Part shown: one piece after another, positions 1-35,122 of the stretch | Position numbering within the stretch: position 1 is the first letter of the stretch | Layout: each line of letters starts with the position of its first letter | IMG/VR virus record: IMGVR_UViG_2713896901_000010 | Strand: one strand, 5' to 3' | DNA: 35,122 nt | From: a virus | Taxonomy: Duplodnaviria; Heunggongvirae; Uroviricota; Caudoviricetes | Notes under the pieces: generated by a model | Told to the model about the DNA's origin: nothing | The model's input: only the letters and a program-made list of their open reading frames with translations | Database searches by the model: none | Position numbers and translations under genes: made by a program

Positions 1-258
1 ATGCAGCAGTATCACTATCCACTGGAAGACGGATTTACCGAAAGGATTCACACGCCGGGAGGCGTCAGGTCACTGGTGGAGGGATCGCACTTGATGAAAT
101 TACTCCGGGATCTCAATAAGGATGGATTTAATGTCGATGGCCCACTTGCCGAACTGACTGCACTGATTAACTACGTCACCAGCTCACAGATGTCTATGCA
201 GGATCTGCAAACACATCTCGACTATTGTGCCGAACAATTACGAAAACAAACCAGATAA
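1..258 (+). CDS. C-terminal fragment of an antirepressor-family protein (5' end upstream of window)
   Basis: Frame open from window edge to TAA 256-258; its ~80 aa share ~45% identity with the C-terminal module of the two complete antirepressor genes (576-1226, 2008-2952). Confidence 0.5.
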   Translation: MQQYHYPLEDGFTERIHTPGGVRSLVEGSHLMKLLRDLNKDGFNVDGPLAELTALINYVTSSQMSMQDLQTHLDYCAEQLRKQTR

Positions 259-575: not shown

Positions 576-1226
576 ATGAACGCTCAACTCATCCCCGTAT
601 TCAACGGCACTATATCCAACGAAACCGCTCTTCTCGTTAATGCCCGTGATTTACACACTTTCCTCGATGTGGGTAAGCGATTTGCTTCGTGGATTGTCGA
701 ACGAATTGCTGAATATGGTTTCGTTGAAAATCAAGACTTTATGATTATTTCCCAAGTTCGGGAAAAAATAGGCAGAGGCCGTCCTGCAAAAGACTACCAC
801 CTCACCCTCGATACAGCCAAAGAGCTGGCGATGGTCGAGCGTAACGAAAAAGGTCGTCAGGTACGACGCTACTTCATTGAATGCGAGAAACGTTTAAGAC
901 AACAAGAAACAAAAGTGGAGAAGGTCTTGTCAGGCTTCATGCCCGCCATTATGGAGGCGATCAAGCTGGAAGACAAAAAAGAATACAGCGCCCCGCTGAA
1001 GCCCGGCTACCGCAGTCTGATTCATTCTCCGTCTGGTGTTCTCGGCCTGACGGAGAACTCACTGCTGATGAATCTGCTGAACCAGTTACAGGACGACGGG
1101 CACGACGTATCGGGCGCGGCGGCGGAGCTGACAACCATGTTCTGCTACATCGTCGGTGTGAGCAAATGCCTGCGTGATATCCAGACACACGCGGAGTACA
1201 TCAACGACAAGGCAGGATTCTTCTGA
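576..1226 (+). CDS. phage antirepressor, KilAC-type N-terminal domain plus shared C-terminal module
   Basis: ATG 576 with GGAG 9 nt upstream; N-terminal ...DYHLTLDTAKELAMVERNEKGRQVRRYFIECEKR matches the KilA-C/ANT antirepressor signature; last 80 aa identical to the C-terminus of the 2008-2952 product. Confidence 0.8.
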   Translation: MNAQLIPVFNGTISNETALLVNARDLHTFLDVGKRFASWIVERIAEYGFVENQDFMIISQVREKIGRGRPAKDYHLTLDTAKELAMVERNEKGRQVRRYFIECEKRLRQQETKVEKVLSGFMPAIMEAIKLEDKKEYSAPLKPGYRSLIHSPSGVLGLTENSLLMNLLNQLQDDGHDVSGAAAELTTMFCYIVGVSKCLRDIQTHAEYINDKAGFF

Positions 1227-1984: not shown

Positions 1985-2241
1985 CACATCCCTGTGCCGC
2001 CGTTCTGTCAGAAGAACCCTGCCTTGTCGTTGATGTACTCCGCGTGGGTCTGGATATCACGCAGGCACTTGCTCACACCGACGATGTAGCAGAACATGGT
2101 GGTCAGCTCCGCCGCCGCGCCCGATACATCGTGCCCGTCGTCCTGTAACTGGTTAAGCAGATTCATCAGCAGTGAGTTCTCCGTCAGGCCGAGAACACCC
2201 GACGGCGAATGAATCAGACTGCGGTAGCCGGGCTTCAGCGG
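1985..2241. repeat. inverted repeat arm 2 (partner of 994-1248)
   Basis: Reverse complement matches 994-1248 at ~95%. Confidence 0.8.
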
Positions 2242-2952
2242 ATAACCATAACATTTTGTCTGTGTTTTAATTGCCTCACGAAGCGCATCTAACATCTTGA
2301 CTGCCACTTCATCATTCTCTGATGCAGATCCAGCAGGGAGATGCTCCCCTTCAAGCGGAACCCGAGCAACAAGAGACAACGCTTCGGCGAATTGATCTTC
2401 ATCAATTTCTTTGTACGAACAGCCAAAATGAGATTTCAGTGACGACCACATGGTGATCATCGCCTTAGCCTGTTTTTCTTTTGGCAGAGACTGACCGCGA
2501 CTCATGACGAGTTGTTTAATGGCTTCCTGCTGTTCAGTGGTTATTTTACCCGGCAGCGCCTTTTTAGCTTTGCGTGGGTTAACCACATGGCCTTTAGTCC
2601 AGTACTCGTAGAGCACATCGTCACACTCTTCCTGATACTGGATTACCTTGTCGCGGATTTCAGGGCGGACTTTGTTAGGGCTGATGGTTTGCAACCAGCC
2701 AGCAAGTTTGCGAAGTGCCAAACAAATAATCTCACGGCGCTGTTCATCCCCAGGAAGCTGCATTGTGATTTTCACAATGCAGGTTTTAAACCGCTGCTTC
2801 ATTTTCGTAAACTGTGAAGCCCAATCCATACCCATGCCTTCAACGATAGGTTTCATTGGGGTGTACGGTTCTCCGTTGTGATTGACAACATAAAGTTCTG
2901 CGCCGTGGAATGGCACGTTGATAGTAGATACCGCTGTTGCTATACTCGCCAT
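2008..2952 (-). CDS. ant: antirepressor Ant (P22 Ant-like N-terminus plus shared C-terminal module)
   Basis: ATG 2952 with AGGA upstream; N-terminus ...INVPFHGAELYVVNHNGEPYTPMKPIVEGMG resembles P22 Ant ...SYVPFNGQQVRTVLIDGEPWF; sits downstream of arc as in P22 immI. Confidence 0.8.
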   Translation of the reverse strand: MASIATAVSTINVPFHGAELYVVNHNGEPYTPMKPIVEGMGMDWASQFTKMKQRFKTCIVKITMQLPGDEQRREIICLALRKLAGWLQTISPNKVRPEIRDKVIQYQEECDDVLYEYWTKGHVVNPRKAKKALPGKITTEQQEAIKQLVMSRGQSLPKEKQAKAMITMWSSLKSHFGCSYKEIDEDQFAEALSLVARVPLEGEHLPAGSASENDEVAVKMLDALREAIKTQTKCYGYPLKPGYRSLIHSPSGVLGLTENSLLMNLLNQLQDDGHDVSGAAAELTTMFCYIVGVSKCLRDIQTHAEYINDKAGFF

Positions 2953-19357: not shown

Positions 19358-19447
19358 ATCAATGACTCCGTACGCAATTAAATTATTACCAATTTAACCA
19401 CATATGATTTATTTATCGTAGAAGGTTGACATTTGACGCGTGAATTA

Positions 19448-19462
19448 TTACCTTTCAGGTAA
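19448..19462. promoter_or_regulatory. operator dyad TTACC-N5-GGTAA (site C)
   Basis: ttacc tttca ggtaa, with TTGACA at 19426-19431. Confidence 0.5.
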
Positions 19463-19784
19463 CCAAAGAGCTCATTCCGGTTACTAACCTGACTGGCTTG
19501 TCGTTAAATTGAACAGGTGGAGTGAGCTTTTATTTTGAGCAGTACGGCGTATGGCACATGCGACGATAGCGGTCTGGATACGTTTAAGGGGCACCCTCCC
19601 TTGCTCGGGCAAACGAACCAGGTAGCCGGAATGTGCAAGTCGAGCGGTTTTATTCCGCGCACGGGGATTAACCATCCCGGCGATTCGGTGTGACGCCTCG
19701 GAAGAGACGAGGGTACAACGATGAGAGCATTTATGGAGCCGCGACAAAGTGTGGCGCCTTAACAGGCTAAGTGCTCTCAGCGTT

Positions 19785-19861
19785 GTGGCATTAGCTCAGT
19801 TGGACAGAGCAACCGCCTTCTAAGCGGTTGGTCGCAGGTTCGAATCCTGCATGCCACGCCA
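19785..19861 (+). tRNA. tRNA-Arg (anticodon UCU), phage-encoded
   Basis: Manual cloverleaf: acceptor GTGGCAT/ATGCCAC, U8, D-stem GCTC/GAGC with GG in loop, anticodon stem ACCGC/GCGGT, loop CUUCUAA, T-stem GCAGG/CCTGC with TTCGAAT loop, discriminator G, encoded CCA; differs from E. coli argU as I recall it. Confidence 0.9.
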
Positions 19862-21905: not shown

Positions 21906-22498
21906 TGATTGCCATCCTGACGTTCTTTGAGTCGCTTCCTGGCTGCTGCTATGCGATCAGCAATTGTCACACTCACATTAACATCCAGGCGTTCTTTGAA
22001 TGCGTTGACGTCGACGTGCTTACCAATCAGTTCGAGGTTCTTCACCTTGTCAGGCCACTTAATTTTTTTGAGGATTGTCTCTATCGAATCCTCGTTCATG
22101 TTCATGATGGTCGATGACAGATCAAAGCCGCTAAGCGTAGTGCGCCAGATTTTCGGCCACTCGCGGATTGGTTTAAGGCTCCCATCGTCGTTGAGGATGT
22201 CGATCACGTCCATCTGGTCGATCTCCACCAGGCGCATGAGAACGTAATCAGCACTGACGCGCATTCGTTTGTTGCGCTCCTCCATCAACTCGGCAATCCG
22301 TTTCTGAATGCGTTCATCGCGCATCATGACACTGGCTTTAACTGCCGCTGTATTTGGGGAGAATCCTGCGTTAATCGCTGCCTGAGTCTGGTTTTCAGGC
22401 GTTTTGATGTATGACTGGCAATAAGCCTCCTGCATTGCTGTTAGTGGCTTAAATTGCGTTGATTTGCGTTTATAGGTTTTAGGTTCAGCAGGCATCAT
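21902..22498 (-). CDS. terS: terminase small subunit (~197 aa)
   Basis: Immediately upstream of and overlapping terL; basic helical N-terminal region; likely start is the ATG pair 22498/22495 rather than table TTG 22576. Confidence 0.75.
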   Translation of the reverse strand: MMPAEPKTYKRKSTQFKPLTAMQEAYCQSYIKTPENQTQAAINAGFSPNTAAVKASVMMRDERIQKRIAELMEERNKRMRVSADYVLMRLVEIDQMDVIDILNDDGSLKPIREWPKIWRTTLSGFDLSSTIMNMNEDSIETILKKIKWPDKVKNLELIGKHVDVNAFKERLDVNVSVTIADRIAAARKRLKERQDGNQ

Positions 22499-22530
22499 AA
22501 CCACCGTGGTAATAGTTACCGTTGTGGTAA
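22498..22530. promoter_or_regulatory. tandem operator dyads upstream of terS (sites D2 and D1)
   Basis: 22516-22530 ttacc gttgt ggtaa (10/10); 22498-22512 taacc accgt ggtaa (9/10) overlapping the terS start codon and GGTGG RBS. Confidence 0.55.
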
Positions 22531-22540
22531 TAGTACCATG

Positions 22541-22567
22541 CAAAATAAAGCCGCCATAGTTGGCGGC
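22541..22567 (-). terminator. rho-independent terminator upstream of the late operon
   Basis: On minus strand GCCGCCA-acta-TGGCGGC followed by TTTATTTTG. Confidence 0.65.
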
Positions 22568-22608
22568 AGTATTCAAAACACATCAAATTCATCATGCATA
22601 ACCTACTC

Positions 22609-24542: not shown

Positions 24543-24842
24543 TCACATCACCCTGAAGCCGTTGCATTTACGTAAAAAATCGCAGATATAGCCCTTCATT
24601 TTTTCGTGCCAATCTCGATCATTCCCATTGCACCAACCATCAGGTGGAGTCCAGTTTTCTATCAGAGCAGCCATTTTCTTTGCTTTCGCCGGAGTAGCTG
24701 TTGCGGTATCGCAGTAATGACGAGTGTCAACCAACGTATCCATACCATCGATATCAAGTACGCAAAACCATGTGTGATTCGGCATTTCAACAGATGGTAT
24801 TTGTTGCCCACGTCGACGTTTATCAATAAGACATACAGTCAT
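24543..24842 (-). CDS. hypothetical protein (99 aa)
   Basis: ORF in nin-like block. Confidence 0.45.
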   Translation of the reverse strand: MTVCLIDKRRRGQQIPSVEMPNHTWFCVLDIDGMDTLVDTRHYCDTATATPAKAKKMAALIENWTPPDGWCNGNDRDWHEKMKGYICDFLRKCNGFRVM

Positions 24843-25991: not shown

Positions 25992-26024
25992 ATAACTAAA
26001 AAGATCGTCGATTCAGGCCGATCT
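25992..26024 (-). terminator. hairpin terminator at the end of the HNH gene
   Basis: AGATCG-11 nt-CGATCT hairpin enclosing the stop codon, then TTTT on the minus strand. Confidence 0.5.
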
Positions 26025-26621
26025 ATTTTTCATCAGTGATTCATAAAACTTTTGCCACTTATGCCGACCGAAATTAGCCTTCGAGTTACAGCTCGAACAA
26101 AGGCAAATAAGGTTCTCCTGACGACAGTCTTGCTTGTCGTAATTGATGTGATGAGTTGTTAGCCTTTTGTCTGTTCCATCACAACCTGGGTTCTGACAAG
26201 TAAAACCATCTCGCTCAATAACCCTCTTGCTCGTTTCTCGGAAATCCCACGGATACGGAAATCTCGATAATCCACCAGACCAGTTTGGATTTCCTTCCCC
26301 CTTCATCAGAGAAGAACGCATTATGTTGGAACACTGTTTCGAGCAGCATTTGTGACGCTTCTCATGACTCAAGAAAACGGAGAACGAAGATCCGCATACG
26401 CAGCATATTTTTAATACTCGCTTTAGTTCCCGATTTACCGTCTTGCCTCGCTGTGAAATTCCTACACACTGAAGTGAGCAGAACCTTGAAGAGGAGTTGG
26501 CTCGCTTAACCTGATATTGCCTGCCACATACGGAGCAAACCTTTTCGATTTTCCCACCCTTCCAATTCGGGTTTTTATCACCGGATACAATCAATCCCGC
26601 AGCATTGGGCTTCTCATTCAT
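26013..26621 (-). CDS. HNH endonuclease with two N-terminal CxxC zinc-finger repeats (202 aa)
   Basis: ...DGFTCQNPGCDGTDKRLTTHHINYDKQDCRQENLICLCSSCNSKAN fits the H-N-H fold; CSVCG...CSLQC and CCVCG...CCSKQC repeats. Confidence 0.7.
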   Translation of the reverse strand: MNEKPNAAGLIVSGDKNPNWKGGKIEKVCSVCGRQYQVKRANSSSRFCSLQCVGISQRGKTVNRELKRVLKICCVCGSSFSVFLSHEKRHKCCSKQCSNIMRSSLMKGEGNPNWSGGLSRFPYPWDFRETSKRVIERDGFTCQNPGCDGTDKRLTTHHINYDKQDCRQENLICLCSSCNSKANFGRHKWQKFYESLMKNRSA

Positions 26622-26971
26622 AGTTCCTCAATCTCCCATCCACCACCGAGCTTTTTAGGTTTTGGATAAGCAACCTGAAAGACAAACGGATAGCTGTCTG
26701 CCGCAACCTTCATCTTGACTCTCGCATCGTCAGTAAAGACTGACTTACTTCCCTTAACGTCCACCATCACCAACTGCCCGTCAGCCAACATCACGGCAAA
26801 ATCTACAGTCAGGAAGCAGTTATCAGCTAACCGCAGCTTGATACCCTCGAATCGATACCAGGCGATTTCCCCTGCACGTTTACGCTGCTCAAGGTGCTGG
26901 CAATACGCAGATTCTGTTTTGTTCATCTGGCCTGTTTTGAGTCGACCAAGAGCCTGTATCTGTTTTCTCAT
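26618..26971 (-). CDS. DUF1064-family protein (117 aa)
   Basis: ...HLEQRKRAGEIAWYRFEGIKLRL...FLTVDFAVMLADGQLVMVDVKG resembles the DUF1064 pattern. Confidence 0.6.
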   Translation of the reverse strand: MRKQIQALGRLKTGQMNKTESAYCQHLEQRKRAGEIAWYRFEGIKLRLADNCFLTVDFAVMLADGQLVMVDVKGSKSVFTDDARVKMKVAADSYPFVFQVAYPKPKKLGGGWEIEEL

Positions 26972-26974
26972 GAT

Positions 26975-26989
26975 TTACCTCTTAGGTAA
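26975..26989. promoter_or_regulatory. operator dyad TTACC-N5-GGTAA (site E1)
   Basis: ttacc tctta ggtaa, 3 nt upstream of ATG 26971; contains the GAGGT RBS on the minus strand. Confidence 0.55.
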
Positions 26990-27017
26990 TTAAAAACCAC
27001 ATAAGACACGAAATCAA
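26989..27017 (-). promoter_or_regulatory. sigma70-like promoter TTGATT-N17-TTTAAT (minus strand)
   Basis: -35 at 27012-27017, -10 at 26989-26994, flanked by operators E1 and E2. Confidence 0.45.
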
Positions 27018-27036
27018 TAGAGTTTAGAATATTTTA

Positions 27037-27051
27037 TTACCCAACAGGTAA
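27037..27051. promoter_or_regulatory. operator dyad TTACC-N5-GGTAA (site E2)
   Basis: ttacc caaca ggtaa. Confidence 0.55.
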
Positions 27052-27060
27052 TTATCAAGA

Positions 27061-27084
27061 CGTAAAAAAAATGCGCTATCGCGC
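27061..27084 (-). terminator. rho-independent terminator after the P-like gene
   Basis: On minus strand GCGC-gata-GCGC followed by A then T8. Confidence 0.55.
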
Positions 27085-27089
27085 TGGTA

Positions 27090-27890
27090 TTACTTGATAA
27101 ATCCTGCCGCCTTTCCCCGCCTGTATTCCTCCATCAGCCACTGAGCCGGTGTTATTCCCCCAAGGGTGGCGGCGTTAGGCATGCACCCGAAACTTCGCCC
27201 TGGTGGGTGGTAAACGTCTCTCCCTGTGTCCGGAGGTGTACTCATGGGTTCTGGCTTTGCCTGTATGCTGATCACCGGATCGGGTATCTGCTGTCCGGAA
27301 GCCACCTTTTTCGCCCAATCATCGAGCAGCCTGCGCGCGTGTTTCTCAACCTCAATCTCGCTAAGCTGGCGCTGATACATTGCACGGCGGGTATCACATA
27401 CGACCCAGTACATAACCGGATGTCGCCACGGGAATCTTTCGGGACCACCAGGATATAAACTTTTTTCCTTGCTGTACCGGTGAAACTCCGCCATCACATC
27501 GTCAATGGTGACGCCAAGAACCATCTTGCTGTCTTTGCACCACTTGATAAATTGCCCTGGCGACGGCCAGAACGGAGATTCACTGGCGCGGGCGTGGCGC
27601 ATACCAGCAGAAACCTGTTCACGGGTTCGGATCCCCCCTTCGGCAAACGCAGCAATCCACTGCTGTTTTGCAGCAACTTCCTGCTCTGGCGTCTTCAGGT
27701 TGGTTACCACTGCCGCCGGAAACAGTTGTTTCAGCTGTTTGAAAAGGGCATCAACAAGCCTCTCTGCTGACATGTTCACCACGTTGTCATTGTTGGTGTA
27801 CTGATGCTCATAACCTGACATGCGAGAAAGGGCTTCTCCGTCACGGTTTTGTATCGCGGTAAAAACGTTGTTCACAAGAAATCCTCCCAT
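27090..27890 (-). CDS. replication protein P-like helicase loader (266 aa)
   Basis: ...VAAKQQWIAAFAEGGIRTREQVSAGMRHARASESPFWPSPGQFIKWCKD parallels lambda P ...RRQWVLAFRENGITTMEQVNAGMRVARRQNRPFLPSPGQFVAWCRE. Confidence 0.8.
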   Translation of the reverse strand: MGGFLVNNVFTAIQNRDGEALSRMSGYEHQYTNNDNVVNMSAERLVDALFKQLKQLFPAAVVTNLKTPEQEVAAKQQWIAAFAEGGIRTREQVSAGMRHARASESPFWPSPGQFIKWCKDSKMVLGVTIDDVMAEFHRYSKEKSLYPGGPERFPWRHPVMYWVVCDTRRAMYQRQLSEIEVEKHARRLLDDWAKKVASGQQIPDPVISIQAKPEPMSTPPDTGRDVYHPPGRSFGCMPNAATLGGITPAQWLMEEYRRGKAAGFIK

Positions 27891-28687
27891 GCTTCAGGGC
27901 TGTTCCAGTGCGGAACGTTGTTATCAGGTAATGTTGATTGCTTCTGTCTGCTAATCTGCAGCCGCCTTGCCAGCTTCTGCTCCCACTGTGCCTGATGGTA
28001 TGCCTTACCCTCAGCCATCCAGTAAATTCTGAACTCTGCAAGTTCCTGTGCCGTTGGCAGAGTGTCCAGGTAGATCCCCTGCAATGAGCTTTTCCGAAGA
28101 AAGTCATCTGATGGCTGCCATTGTTCATGCATGACAAATTTGCCTAATTGCCCTGGCCCACCAGGAGGAACAAAGTTATTCATCACGGCGTTGTTTGCGC
28201 CGGGGTCATGAGGCACAGAATTCCCGGTTTTTGTCCCGCTCTCCCTCTCTTGGTTAAATGACTGGTTATATGACTGGTTCTGGATCCCGTTTTTGGGATC
28301 ATTCAACATCCCGTTTTTGGGATCATTCAACATCCCGTTTTTGGGTATATTCCCGTTTTCGGGAACATTACCGTTTTCGGGTTCATTCCACCCTTCCCGG
28401 TTGCCTTTAATATTCCCGTTTTTGGTTATATTAAGAGAGAAAACCCGCACTCTTTTCGTCGCTCCCTTTCTCTCTCCGGTATCTGAAATAAGCCCCATTT
28501 TCATGAGCGATATGAGCCCGGCCTGCACGGTTTTTTTATTCAGGCAAGTGTCTTTAACGAGGCGTTCTATGCTGGGGTAGCAGAGGTTATCTTCATCGGC
28601 TCTGTCAGCCATCGAGAGCAGTATGAGCTTTAATGACGAGCTACCTGGATCTGTCTCCCAGGCCCAATCTGTTGCATGTCTGCTCAT
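27872..28687 (-). CDS. replication initiator, lambda O-like, with iterons inside the coding sequence (271 aa)
   Basis: N-terminal winged-helix-like region; central PENGNVPENGNIPKNGMLNDPKNGMLNDPKNG encoded by DNA iterons; immediately upstream of P-like gene. Confidence 0.65.
   Translation of the reverse strand: MSRHATDWAWETDPGSSSLKLILLSMADRADEDNLCYPSIERLVKDTCLNKKTVQAGLISLMKMGLISDTGERKGATKRVRVFSLNITKNGNIKGNREGWNEPENGNVPENGNIPKNGMLNDPKNGMLNDPKNGIQNQSYNQSFNQERESGTKTGNSVPHDPGANNAVMNNFVPPGGPGQLGKFVMHEQWQPSDDFLRKSSLQGIYLDTLPTAQELAEFRIYWMAEGKAYHQAQWEQKLARRLQISRQKQSTLPDNNVPHWNSPEAWEDFL
28286..28433. repeat. origin iterons (5-6 tandem units, core CCCGTTTT(T/C)GGG)
   Basis: Two perfect 24-bp units cccgtttttgggatcattcaacat at 28286-28309 and 28310-28333, degenerate units to 28433; direct repeat atgactggtt x2 at 28259-28279. 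Confidence 0.7.
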
Positions 28688-28903: not shown

Positions 28904-28983
28904 GGTAAGCCCTGTTATTAGTATTGGGATTACGGTTATTTTGTGCTGACACAAAAAAAAGATCAACCAGATTTGGTTTTTTG

Positions 28984-28998
28984 TTACCTTTGAGGTAC
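28984..28998. promoter_or_regulatory. near-perfect operator dyad (site F, 9/10)
   Basis: ttacc tttga ggtac. Confidence 0.35.
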
Positions 28999-29003
28999 GA
29001 ATA

Positions 29004-29284: not shown

Positions 29285-29320
29285 AGCTATTGCCTGATAT
29301 TTATTTCAGATAATAAATAT

Positions 29321-29383
29321 TCACCCATAAGGTAACAAAAATCAAGGATAGTTACCTATGAGGTGCATTTACCTGTTGGGTAA
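29321..29383. promoter_or_regulatory. OR-like operator cluster (three dyads)
   Basis: 29321-29335 tcacc cataa ggtaa (9/10); 29352-29366 ttacc tatga ggtgc (8/10); 29369-29383 ttacc tgttg ggtaa (10/10). Confidence 0.6.
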
Positions 29384-29438
29384 TATTGCTTTAAATTGAA
29401 TCATCTACTGATTCATATATGAGGCGATTTTCCAGAAA

Positions 29439-30023
29439 ATGAAAAGTATCCAGGACGTCCGCAGGCAAAATCTCAACGACTTGATCGACCGTGAATTCAA
29501 TGGTGTTCAGACGCGGATGGCAGAAAAACTTGGAACTCAGGCAAATCTGGTAAACCGCTGGGCTCTTGGAAAGAAGGTTATCGGCGACCAGGTTGCGCGA
29601 AAAATTGAAGCTGCCGCCAATAAACCCCGTAACTGGCTTGATATCGATCGCTCGCTTTCTCAGGAAGGTTTTCAGCCTGTCGGCCCAAGCGACATTGGTC
29701 AGCTGGCGGCTCACAACCTGGAACGCTGGATGAGCGAAAGCCGCGACCTTTCAACACAGGGAAAACTTCACCGCGCATCCGGCGTCGCCCAGGTGACAAT
29801 CAGCCGCCTGTTAAACAATGAGGTCAGCGTTTCCATTTCCACCTTGGAGAATGTTGCATCCGCATTCGGGCGTCACGGCTATGAATTACTGATTCACCCG
29901 CACGACCCTGCGACCATCAACTATGACCGCTCGCGCTACGCATTGTTACCCGAAACCGAGAAAGCAAAGATCGAAAGTTACATTGAATTTGTCATCAATC
30001 AGAACGAAAAAAACAAACAATAA
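29439..30023 (+). CDS. CI-like repressor with two HTH motifs and no S24 peptidase domain (194 aa)
   Basis: N-terminal XRE-type HTH (MAEKLGTQANLVNRW) plus second HTH (SGVAQVTISRLLNNEVSVSISTLENVA); no Ser/Lys autoproteolysis domain visible. Confidence 0.7.
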   Translation: MKSIQDVRRQNLNDLIDREFNGVQTRMAEKLGTQANLVNRWALGKKVIGDQVARKIEAAANKPRNWLDIDRSLSQEGFQPVGPSDIGQLAAHNLERWMSESRDLSTQGKLHRASGVAQVTISRLLNNEVSVSISTLENVASAFGRHGYELLIHPHDPATINYDRSRYALLPETEKAKIESYIEFVINQNEKNKQ

Positions 30024-30044
30024 GATCATAGTTTTCAGTAAGTA

Positions 30045-30068
30045 AGCCGCCTTCTGGCGGCTTTTTTA
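30045..30068 (+). terminator. rho-independent terminator after the repressor gene
   Basis: agccgcc-ttct-ggcggct followed by TTTTTT. Confidence 0.8.
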
Positions 30069-30080
30069 TTGCCTGTTCGA

Positions 30081-30095
30081 TTACCTGGTGGGTAA
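30081..30095. promoter_or_regulatory. operator dyad TTACC-N5-GGTAA (site H1)
   Basis: ttacc tggtg ggtaa. Confidence 0.6.
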
Positions 30096-30114
30096 TTTTT
30101 TTAACTCATATCTA

Positions 30115-30143
30115 TTGACATCAAACCAGATACGCATAATTAT
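30115..30143 (+). promoter_or_regulatory. pL-like promoter TTGACA-N17-AATTAT
   Basis: Consensus -35 at 30115-30120; -10 at 30138-30143 whose last T is the first base of operator H2. Confidence 0.55.
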
Positions 30144-30157
30144 TACCTCAACGGTAA
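30143..30157. promoter_or_regulatory. operator dyad TTACC-N5-GGTAA (site H2)
   Basis: ttacc tcaac ggtaa. Confidence 0.6.
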
Positions 30158-30176
30158 CAGACCGAGGTAACAAGTT

Positions 30177-33871: not shown

Positions 33872-35122
33872 TTATTCCCCCGCCATCCACTTCTCAAACT
33901 TCGACGGGGAGAACGGAATCAGATCCGTATGCTCCCCGTTAATCCAAGAATCAATCATATCGGCCCACTGCTGCAACATGTAGGCGCGCTGTCTTGCGTA
34001 TTCCGCTTTGTTATATACGGCGCGCACACCTTTCTGTTCATGTGCCAGAGCCTTTTCAATCCAGTCTGAAGGATAACCAGCCTCATGCAACAACGTACTG
34101 GCTGTACGGCGCATATCATGTACAGTGAAGTCCTGAATATGCTCACCATCTTCATTTATTATTTTCACCGTTCTGTCGATCAGAGAGTTCAGCGCGGCAT
34201 TAGATAATGGCTTCCGGAAGTTGTAACGACCAGGAACCAGATATTCACTTCCACCAGCGCACATCTGCAACCCGACCAATATATCCTGTGCCTGTTTAGG
34301 CAGGTAAATAACGTGCGCCCGGCTTCCCTTCATGCGGTCTGAAGGAATTGTCCATGTCCATTTTTTAAAATCTATTTCGTCCCACGTTGCATTGGTGAAT
34401 TCTCCCTTACGAACCATGGTGATAAGCACCAGCTTTAAAGCCATTTTCATAGTGCCCATAGCACCAATGGCATCCAGCGTGCGGAAGAACAGGCCAATTT
34501 CTTCTGGTGTCAGTGTTCGCTCTCGTGGTTTAAATATGGCGATAGACGAAGGTTTAATGTCAGCCGCAGGATTAAACAAACCATGACCACGGTCATTGGC
34601 GTGACGGTATACGCTGCTGATGATCTCCCTGGCCTGTACTGCTGTTGCCCGACCACCGCGTTCGACAATCCGGTCACACAAATCACGAACCATCGATGTG
34701 GTAATTTCAGCCATCATTTTGTTGCCAAGAACCGGAAGTATGTCACGGTCGATCACCGCCTGCTTCATTGCGCGGGTACTGTCAGCCAGGATGACGTGTT
34801 TCATATAACTGTCGGTATGTACCGCAAACGTCTCGGCACCACGAATCTTTTTAATACCGTCACGTTTAGCCGCAGCCGGTGACTGGCCTGCTTTAAGCAG
34901 CTTCTTTGCAGCAATCAGTTCTTCTCGCGCTTCTGCCAGGCTGATACCGTCACGCCCATACTGCCCGATTACCAGTGTTTCGCGGCGACCGTTGATACGG
35001 TAGTCATAGCGAAACGAGACCGTGCCTGACGTAAGCACAGCTACATACAGCCCGTCACGATCGGAGACCTTGTACAGTTTGTCCTGCGGCTTGAGGTTTT
35101 TTAATTTTGTATCGGTAAGCAC
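33872..35122 (-). CDS. int: tyrosine integrase with N-terminal Arm-type domain; start at or just beyond window edge
   Basis: N-terminus (V/M)LTDTKLKNLKPQDKLYKVSDRDGLYVAV is the P4/CP4-57 Arm domain; C-terminal HDMRRTASTLLHEAG...RAVYNKAEY supplies the HxxR and catalytic Tyr; first codon at the edge is GTG. Confidence 0.9.
   Translation of the reverse strand: MLTDTKLKNLKPQDKLYKVSDRDGLYVAVLTSGTVSFRYDYRINGRRETLVIGQYGRDGISLAEAREELIAAKKLLKAGQSPAAAKRDGIKKIRGAETFAVHTDSYMKHVILADSTRAMKQAVIDRDILPVLGNKMMAEITTSMVRDLCDRIVERGGRATAVQAREIISSVYRHANDRGHGLFNPAADIKPSSIAIFKPRERTLTPEEIGLFFRTLDAIGAMGTMKMALKLVLITMVRKGEFTNATWDEIDFKKWTWTIPSDRMKGSRAHVIYLPKQAQDILVGLQMCAGGSEYLVPGRYNFRKPLSNAALNSLIDRTVKIINEDGEHIQDFTVHDMRRTASTLLHEAGYPSDWIEKALAHEQKGVRAVYNKAEYARQRAYMLQQWADMIDSWINGEHTDLIPFSPSKFEKWMAGE

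Follow-up and report, generated by a model that had tools for sequence, protein, structure and literature searches.

The 118-bp gap between the replication gene P and the DUF1064-like gene that opens the nin-like block of a phiV10/epsilon15-like prophage is probably a self-contained promoter cassette controlled by the phage repressor, a reading to which we assign a probability of roughly 0.6. The prophage was analyzed as a stretch of 35,122 nucleotides (IMG/VR record IMGVR_UViG_2713896901_000010; hereafter the window), and BLAST comparison with phage records identifies it as a Uetakevirus podovirus whose identity to phiV10 is about 96% in the region of the P/DUF1064 cassette. Relative to phiV10, the window is in reverse orientation, opening at the start of the antirepressor homolog and closing at that of the integrase, so that the early-right genes lie on the minus strand, on which all elements of the cassette are read. 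A sequence-only reading had proposed that P is followed by a terminator, an operator E2, a TTGATT-N17-TTTAAT promoter, and an operator E1 overlapping the ribosome-binding site of the DUF1064 gene. All of these are present where they had been placed, on the minus strand, except that E1 begins one base earlier, at 26974 rather than 26975. In the direction of reading, the elements of the cassette are as follows.

27064..27084, minus strand: terminator-like element, GCGC-GATA-GCGC followed by A and T8 (hairpin 27084-27073, T8 27071-27064)
27053..27063, minus strand: hypervariable 11-nt spacer, the T run leading to E2; contains TTGATA (27058-27053), the −35 of an alternative promoter
27036..27052, no strand: operator E2 (promoter-distal), ATTACCTGTTGGGTAAT, a perfect dyad, identified by motif scan, an epsilon15 homolog, and conservation
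27029..27035, minus strand: AAAATAT tract directly after E2, near-invariant in 77 cassettes and in 7 phages of 4 host genera
27012..27017, minus strand: TTGATT, −35 of the conserved promoter (P-b), within an invariant CTATTGA and in a conserved register
26989..26994, minus strand: TTTAAT, −10 of P-b, in the same register as the AATTAT of the PL promoter
26974..26990, no strand: operator E1 (promoter-proximal), ATTACCTAAGAGGTAAA, identified by motif scan and conservation

The operator pair

Both operators belong to a 17-bp dyad, ATTACC-N5-GGTAAT, of which E2 matches all 12 specified bases and E1 11 of the 12. With up to two mismatches allowed, the window contains 10 matches where 0.92 are expected, and none of 100 shuffled sequences reached 10, an over-representation of about tenfold that is far beyond chance. 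Three of the copies (29368, 30080, and 30142) lie around the repressor gene. E2 aligns with positions 35906-35922 of epsilon15, which are annotated as a protein_bind feature, "repressor" (AY150271.2); this site, one of seven so annotated, is situated between the replication gene and the gene that follows it. E1 lies over both the Shine-Dalgarno sequence AAGAGG (26983-26978) and the point at which transcription is expected to begin, and its first two bases are the last two of the −10 hexamer TTTAAT.

Selection on the operators was examined in 91 distinct phiV10-type sequences anchored on the terminator sequence only, leaving the operators themselves unconstrained. The half-sites TTACC and GGTAA of both E1 and E2 are invariant in 91 of the 91, although the DNA around them is highly variable: 30 alleles were counted for the 5-bp center of E2, with 1.14 bits per column, and 30 also for the 11-nt stretch preceding the operator (mean entropy 0.57 bits); in the same set, the coding sequence of P has an entropy of 0.05 bits per column. 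Invariant half-sites within hypervariable DNA are the signature of a dyad contacted by protein.

The hypervariability is confined to islands, at 27041-27047 and 27053-27063 for the E2 center and its 5' flank, and at 30073-30079 and 30086-30090 for the flank and center of the distal operator of PL. In these promoter-distal operators, the 5-bp center and the 7-11 nt upstream show three to four alleles per column among sequences that are otherwise about 97% identical. The centers of the proximal operators are far less variable, and the half-sites adjoining the islands are invariant. A search for complementarity between the hypervariable flank and the E2 center, as would be produced by a hidden inverted repeat, revealed none that was systematic.

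The centers of E1 and E2 are 62 bp apart, the same distance that separates the two PL operators and one that corresponds to about six helical turns, placing E1 and E2 on the same face of the helix. The cassette is found with this spacing in phiV10, epsilon15, SPC32H (operators at 35971 and 36033), Tyrion, BUCT711, and Kp4865-1, and its host range takes in phages of Escherichia, Salmonella, Enterobacter, and Klebsiella. An exact-pattern scan of viral contigs returned more than 120 loci at which two dyads lie 62 bp apart, often as two pairs about 3 kb from each other. When spacings from 47 to 77 bp were allowed, 73 of 106 pairs were found at 62 bp and another 12 at 63 bp. The operators thus have the character of a phased pair, held strictly at a whole number of helical turns. 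An alignment of seven phages from four host genera, picked by BLAST independently of the motif, shows that the GCGC...GCGC stem, a T7 run, both pairs of half-sites, AAAAT, TATTGA, and TCATG at the start codon are invariant. The ATG itself lies 2 nt past E1 in 64 of 79 distinct cassettes, and the genes on either side change, those downstream being DUF1064-like, RuvC-like, or other, and those upstream P or DnaT-like.

The presumed reader of E1 and E2 is encoded by the repressor gene at 29439..30023 (plus strand), whose product is a homolog of SPC32H Rep (PDB 5d50), matching it over residues 1-190 of 194 (E=4e-42), and is identical to the phiV10 repressor in many loci. SPC32H Rep is described as a tetramer that binds palindromic sites with its DNA-binding domains paired across dimers (PMC9638917). 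A later paper ascribes to it a tetramerization domain of the looping type and says that how it represses, in structural terms, "has not been extensively characterized" (PMC9986798). The presumed inducer, which would remove Rep from all of its operators, is an antirepressor (Ant) homolog at 1..258 (plus strand), which tblastn aligns with SPC32H Ant at 87% identity and with phiV10p24 at 96.5%. The center of E2 varies with the repressor: it reads AAAA followed by A, G, or T in 21 of 21 cassettes linked to the Rep clades of epsilon15, SPC32H, or the Klebsiella phages and in 0 of 35 with the Rep clade of the window, and the pattern is unchanged by the identity of the downstream gene (DUF1064 or RuvC-like). 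The half-sites do not covary with repressor type, TTACC and GGTAA being present in every relative examined, namely the six phages named above and about 100 viral contigs whose repressors are as little as 40% or so identical.

From these data, it is very probable that the phage's own repressor uses E1 and E2 as operators. They combine what would be expected of Rep operators: a dyad, a cognate repressor gene flanked by further copies of it, an annotated homolog, half-sites that are under selection, and an E2 center that covaries with the Rep clade. Full-text literature searches found no description of operators of the E1/E2 type; the study of phage vB_EcoP_ZX5 demonstrated the effects of repressor and antirepressor and did not map operators.

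The enclosed putative promoter and the hairpin after P

The promoter-like sequence between the operators has a −35 hexamer, TTGATT, that matches the consensus at 4 of 6 positions and is followed by a 17-nt spacer, within the 16-18 nt characteristic of σ70 promoters. Its −10 hexamer, TTTAAT, matches at 5 of 6 positions and has T at position 2, where a σ70 −10 element should have A, together with T at position 6. The −10 of P-b is for this reason expected to be weak. Among relatives it reads TTTAAT, TTAAAT, or ATAAAT, and CAGTAT in a divergent lineage, and TTGAnn is found at a fixed 17 nt from it in 78 of the 79 distinct cassettes. At PL, the CTATTGAC motif recurs in the register of the −35 of P-b. 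TTGATT-N17-TTTAAT is accordingly the promoter with the conserved −35 and register, and it is predicted to be active. The AAAATAT tract occupies approximately −53 to −47 of P-b, the position of an upstream promoter (UP) element, and may serve as one; it also supplies the −10 hexamer, TAAAAT, of the alternative promoter.

The hairpin upstream of E2 begins 5 nt past the TAA of P, with a GAUA loop followed by A and U8. Its loop length (within 3-8 nt), U run, and position after a stop codon are those of an intrinsic terminator, but its 4-bp stem (dG −5.9 kcal/mol) falls short of a stable GC-rich stem of at least 5 bp. A terminator scan of the window, which required at least 5 pairs, did not report the hairpin at 27084-27064. 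By comparison, dG is −14.9 kcal/mol for the terminator that follows the repressor gene and −13.8 kcal/mol for the one that precedes terS. On the sequence of the window alone, the hairpin is within chance; it is, however, conserved in relatives. The 77 distinct related cassettes compared share a single stem sequence, with a loop that takes 10 forms and a T run 7-8 long. As the GCGC/GCGC stem never varies in this set, there are no compensatory changes to observe. An exactly homologous hairpin and T run in phiV10 (35038-35057; NC_007804.2) is annotated as a "putative rho-independent transcriptional terminator".

These features suggest a model in which, in the lysogen, Rep would occupy both E1 and E2, with E1 blocking the −10 together with the sites of transcription start and ribosome binding, and E2 lying at the UP-element position. 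A single repressor assembly could bridge the two operators, 62 bp apart on the same face, and so shut the promoter that they enclose, and the short GC hairpin with its U run would act as a partial stop for transcription arriving from the replication operon (PR). Inactivation of Rep by Ant would open the nin promoter along with PL, PR, and the other guarded entries, and the nin-like genes would be expressed from the local promoter together with read-through past the weak terminator. The proposal of the sequence-only reading that the nin-like block is separately repressed is upheld insofar as the operators bracket a promoter-like site, the layout matches that of PL base for base, and the varied flanking genes fit a self-contained entry.

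Several observations weigh against the cassette as we read it. The promoter scan misses TTGATT-N17-TTTAAT, with its T for A at position 2 of the −10, and the sole promoter that it reports here is TTGATA-N16-TAAAAT (27058-27031; score 10/12), which has E2 in its spacer. The fold z-score of the hairpin, −1.26, is no better than that of shuffled sequences. The covariation of Rep clade and E2 center could be explained in part by linkage (about 2.4 kb) and shared ancestry, and because all Rep clades examined share the half-sites, Rep and a Cro-like second binder are inseparable by sequence. Finally, a strong terminator follows the cro-like gene, and an antitermination mechanism favoring read-through is conceivable.

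One alternative is that the promoter reported by the scan is the one active in this phage, with E2 in its spacer and E1 as an auxiliary operator downstream, or that the two promoters act in tandem. Its −10 has both A at position 2 and T at position 6, the TAAAAT/AAAATAT tract that provides it is almost invariant, the T run is suitably placed for an UP element, and the PR-like promoter of the window likewise has an operator in its spacer. Its −35, however, falls within the hypervariable spacer (30 alleles in the 91 sequences), and only 19 of 79 cassettes match TTGACA at four or more of six positions there, so that it is not a conserved feature of the cassette. We regard this arrangement as unlikely, though the upstream promoter may be active in this phage.

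The nin-like genes might instead be expressed mainly from PR through a leaky or antiterminated stop, with TTGATT-N17-TTTAAT inactive and E1 and E2 serving as a back-up roadblock or as extra anchors that help the repressor hold its main operators. In lambda, the terminator tR2 lies directly after P and before a block of small accessory and nuclease genes, and it is passed by N-mediated antitermination; the hairpin of the window shares this location, is weak in stem, free energy, and z-score alike, and is followed by a −10 that lacks A at position 2. Against this model, the −35 TTGA and the exact 17-nt register have been retained in all but one of the cassettes, the architecture is identical to that of PL, a near-consensus promoter, and in the divergent lineage the −10 found at this register is canonical. 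Moreover, PR is already repressed in the lysogen, leaving little for a roadblock to block. In this strong form, we consider the model improbable. A 4-bp stem of −5.9 kcal/mol should nonetheless leak, making read-through from PR likely, and the weak hairpin and the non-canonical −10 together lead us to expect contributions from both local initiation and read-through. The earlier contention that the block is repressed separately rather than driven by read-through consequently finds no support in its second half, operation of both routes being likelier.

It is doubtful that the conserved block of 125 bp exists mainly as a linker at which gene modules are exchanged by recombination (a "boundary sequence"), its regulatory appearance being secondary. 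The cassette does maintain a mean column identity of 79% across the seven phages and four host genera while both flanking genes differ. The pattern of conservation is nevertheless like that of function, with half-sites, stem, T run, and −35 invariant and loops, operator centers, and spacer free to vary, and a linker role would be compatible with a regulatory one. The divergent lineage is also at odds with a linker: it preserves the order terminator-operator-promoter-operator and the 62-bp spacing with a −10 (CAGTAT) in which A and T stand at their canonical positions, and its hairpin, CCCUCC/GGGGG, is unrelated and overlaps the stop codon of a DnaT-like gene, indicating that the design, and not merely the sequence, is maintained. 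That the dyads work as RNA hairpins that mask the Shine-Dalgarno sequence or stabilize the message, rather than as protein-binding DNA sites, is very improbable: E1 does overlap the Shine-Dalgarno sequence and both dyads can fold into hairpins of 5-7 bp, but with free energies of −5.1 and −5.5 kcal/mol and z-scores of −0.51 and −1.71 these hairpins are weak and fold no more stably than shuffled sequences, copies of the dyad flank the repressor gene on either side and also precede promoters, in places that would not be transcribed, no Rfam family exceeded its threshold (there was only a sub-threshold microRNA match), and no compensatory changes of the arms were seen among the 91 sequences with their invariant half-sites.

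The PL twin and other presumably guarded entries

Dyads of the same family mark further entries into transcription units of the window.

30044..30158, plus strand: PL cassette, with terminator 30044-30063 and T run, distal operator 30080-30096, and proximal operator 30142-30158
30115-30120 and 30138-30143, plus strand: PL promoter, TTGACA and AATTAT separated by a 17-nt spacer, near-consensus
29320..29384, no strand: operators in the gap that separates the repressor gene from the divergent cro-like gene, at 29368-29384, 29351-29367 (degenerate), and 29320-29336
22497..22567, minus strand: terS entry, with strong terminator 22567-22550, abutting operators 22531-22515 and 22513-22497, and ATG at 22495

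The PL region is, by comparison of sequence and layout, the exact twin of the nin cassette, with the same register and with stronger parts than those of nin. It consists, in order, of a strong terminator, the distal operator, a T tract, CTATTGACA, the 17-nt spacer, AATTAT, and the proximal operator, which the last two bases of AATTAT open. The two cassettes have in common the element order, the AT tract, the CTATTGA −35 motif, the spacer, the overlap of −10 and operator, and the 62 bp. They differ in that PL has a strong terminator and TTGACA/AATTAT, whereas nin has the 4-bp hairpin and TTGATT/TTTAAT and its proximal operator covers the Shine-Dalgarno sequence.

The terS entry, which the nin layout had been thought to copy, resembles it only loosely: its terminator is strong, its operators abut (18 bp apart), its ATG is one base past the second operator, and a search for a promoter between terminator and ATG found none. 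The copy of the nin layout is PL. The longest terS frame, in the 22493-22576 region, would enclose the strong terminator and both operators in coding sequence, and the terS start of the phiV10 RefSeq record at position 41 (NC_007804.2, 41-715) presents the same problem. The ATG at 22495, placed as in the epsilon15 annotation, is the more plausible candidate.

Between the repressor and cro-like genes, the scan places a PR-like promoter, TTGTTA-N17-TATTAT, at 29338-29310 (minus strand), with an operator in the spacer. The strong terminator directly after the cro-like gene (29032-29013, minus strand; 8-bp stem) precedes a near-dyad, CGTACCTCAAAGGTAAC, at 28983-28999, which is kept in phiV10 (33111) and Tyrion; the replication genes would thus also lie behind an entry composed of a terminator and an operator. 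Additional dyads of the window lie at 289-305, 1290-1306, and 19447-19463, and those of relatives at 24691 and 26869 in phiV10, 24703 and 26881 in epsilon15, and 24781 and 26959 in SPC32H. Their contexts are after ant, before the Bro-like, small membrane-protein, and portal-side genes, and, in the relatives, the lysis cassette and the integrase. A LexA box near the operator at 1290 was considered and rejected by eye, the spacing of CTG and CAG being off by one.

Almost every operon entry carries a dyad, a distribution suggesting that all transcription units are under the direct guard of a single repressor. It is possible, and we put it forward only tentatively, that the cassette is a portable, insulated expression unit used at least twice in each Uetakevirus genome (at PL and nin), in which one Rep tetramer clamps two operators six turns apart. 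Together with the other guarded entries, this would let one repressor silence every unit without an antitermination cascade, and the hypervariable islands might serve to tune or diversify the strength of repression instead of varying neutrally. The other entries in such a scheme would have single or abutting operators: those after the cro-like gene and at terS, portal, and Ant/Bro in the window, and those at the lysis genes and int in relatives only.

Known systems and gene context

The type of element is already known: it is a module of repressor, operator, and promoter from a phage family with a characterized repressor, and parts of it are annotated in relatives. The epsilon15 (AY150271.2) and phiV10 (NC_007804.2) records hold annotations at the same position, after the replication genes and before the nin-like genes, and in the same sequence family, the alignment with epsilon15 being column for column. 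These annotations are predictions rather than experiments, and they leave the second operator over the ribosome-binding site, the promoter, and the 62-bp pairing unmarked. No annotation of the promoter register, the second operator, or the strict 62-bp pairing was present in any of the records examined.

In SPC32H, Rep and Ant reportedly form a switch between lysis and lysogeny (PDB 5d50, 5d4z). The window encodes homologs of both, and SPC32H carries the same cassette. The likeness to the lambda nin region is limited, no search for an N-like antiterminator or nut sites having been made, to the position of the terminator after P: lambda is not known to have a repressor-controlled promoter after tR2, whereas in the window a repressor-guarded promoter would follow the terminator. 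With lac O1/O3, gal OE/OI, and lambda OL-OR, the pair shares an integral number of helical turns, a bracketed promoter, and an oligomeric repressor; in contrast to those loops, the distance is very short (62 bp) and strictly fixed, and the bridging is that of our model. The stoperators of mycobacteriophage L5 are many sites for one prophage repressor, gp71, scattered outside the immunity region. They are asymmetric, act in an orientation-dependent manner, and block elongation inside transcription units, whereas the sites of the window are symmetric dyads at intergenic operon entries, accompanied by promoter-like sequences and terminators, and so are not of the stoperator type.

With the cassette present in 529 of 5426 complete E. 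coli genomes, it matters chiefly for the annotation and understanding of a very common prophage. If every entry were guarded by Rep, the antirepressor would bring about induction in a single step, unlike the cascade of lambda, and the nuclease-rich nin-like genes would be doubly silent in lysogens. The fixed 62-bp pair offers a concrete DNA geometry for the unusual tetrameric Rep. Current ideas are not overturned, and the most interesting leads are the hypervariable operator centers and the genome-wide guarding of entries.

The genes that border the cassette are the following.

27090..27890, minus strand: replication gene P, the last before the cassette (Pfam PF06992, Phage_lambda_P, E=1.5e-56)
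27092-27090, minus strand: TAA stop codon of P, from the sequence
26618..26971, minus strand: DUF1064-like gene, the first of the nin-like block, with a PF06356 match and annotated as DUF1064 in relatives

The PF06356 score of the DUF1064-like gene, whose ATG start codon is at 26971, is 23.0 bits, slightly below the cutoff of 24.7 bits. Similarity to phiV10-type phages ends at about 26819, some 150 nt into this gene, which marks a mosaic junction inside it. The open reading frame that follows, at 26013-26621, encodes a cysteine-rich protein of 202 amino acids without a Pfam match.

Upstream of P, the DnaT/helix-turn-helix replication-initiator gene contains tandem repeats at 28284-28389, a perfect 24-bp repeat (2.6 copies) followed by an 18-bp repeat (3.2 copies). 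Each unit includes a small inverted repeat (TCCCGTTTTTGGGA), and the scan tool flags these as plus-strand terminators; they look more like origin iterons inside an initiator gene, as in lambda O, than like terminators.

Three Ant-like domains are present in the window, at 1-258 (plus strand), 975-1211 (plus strand), and 2035-2250 (minus strand). The second is the C-terminal part of a 216-amino-acid protein, is about 40% identical to Ant, and has a phiV10 counterpart annotated as Bro-N. The third, about 42-46% identical, lies inside an open reading frame of 314 amino acids (2008-2952). A tRNA-Arg gene (anticodon TCT) is located at 19785-19861 (plus strand), downstream of the dyad at 19447 and of a plus-strand TTGACA, and SPC32H has a tRNA-Arg at the corresponding place.

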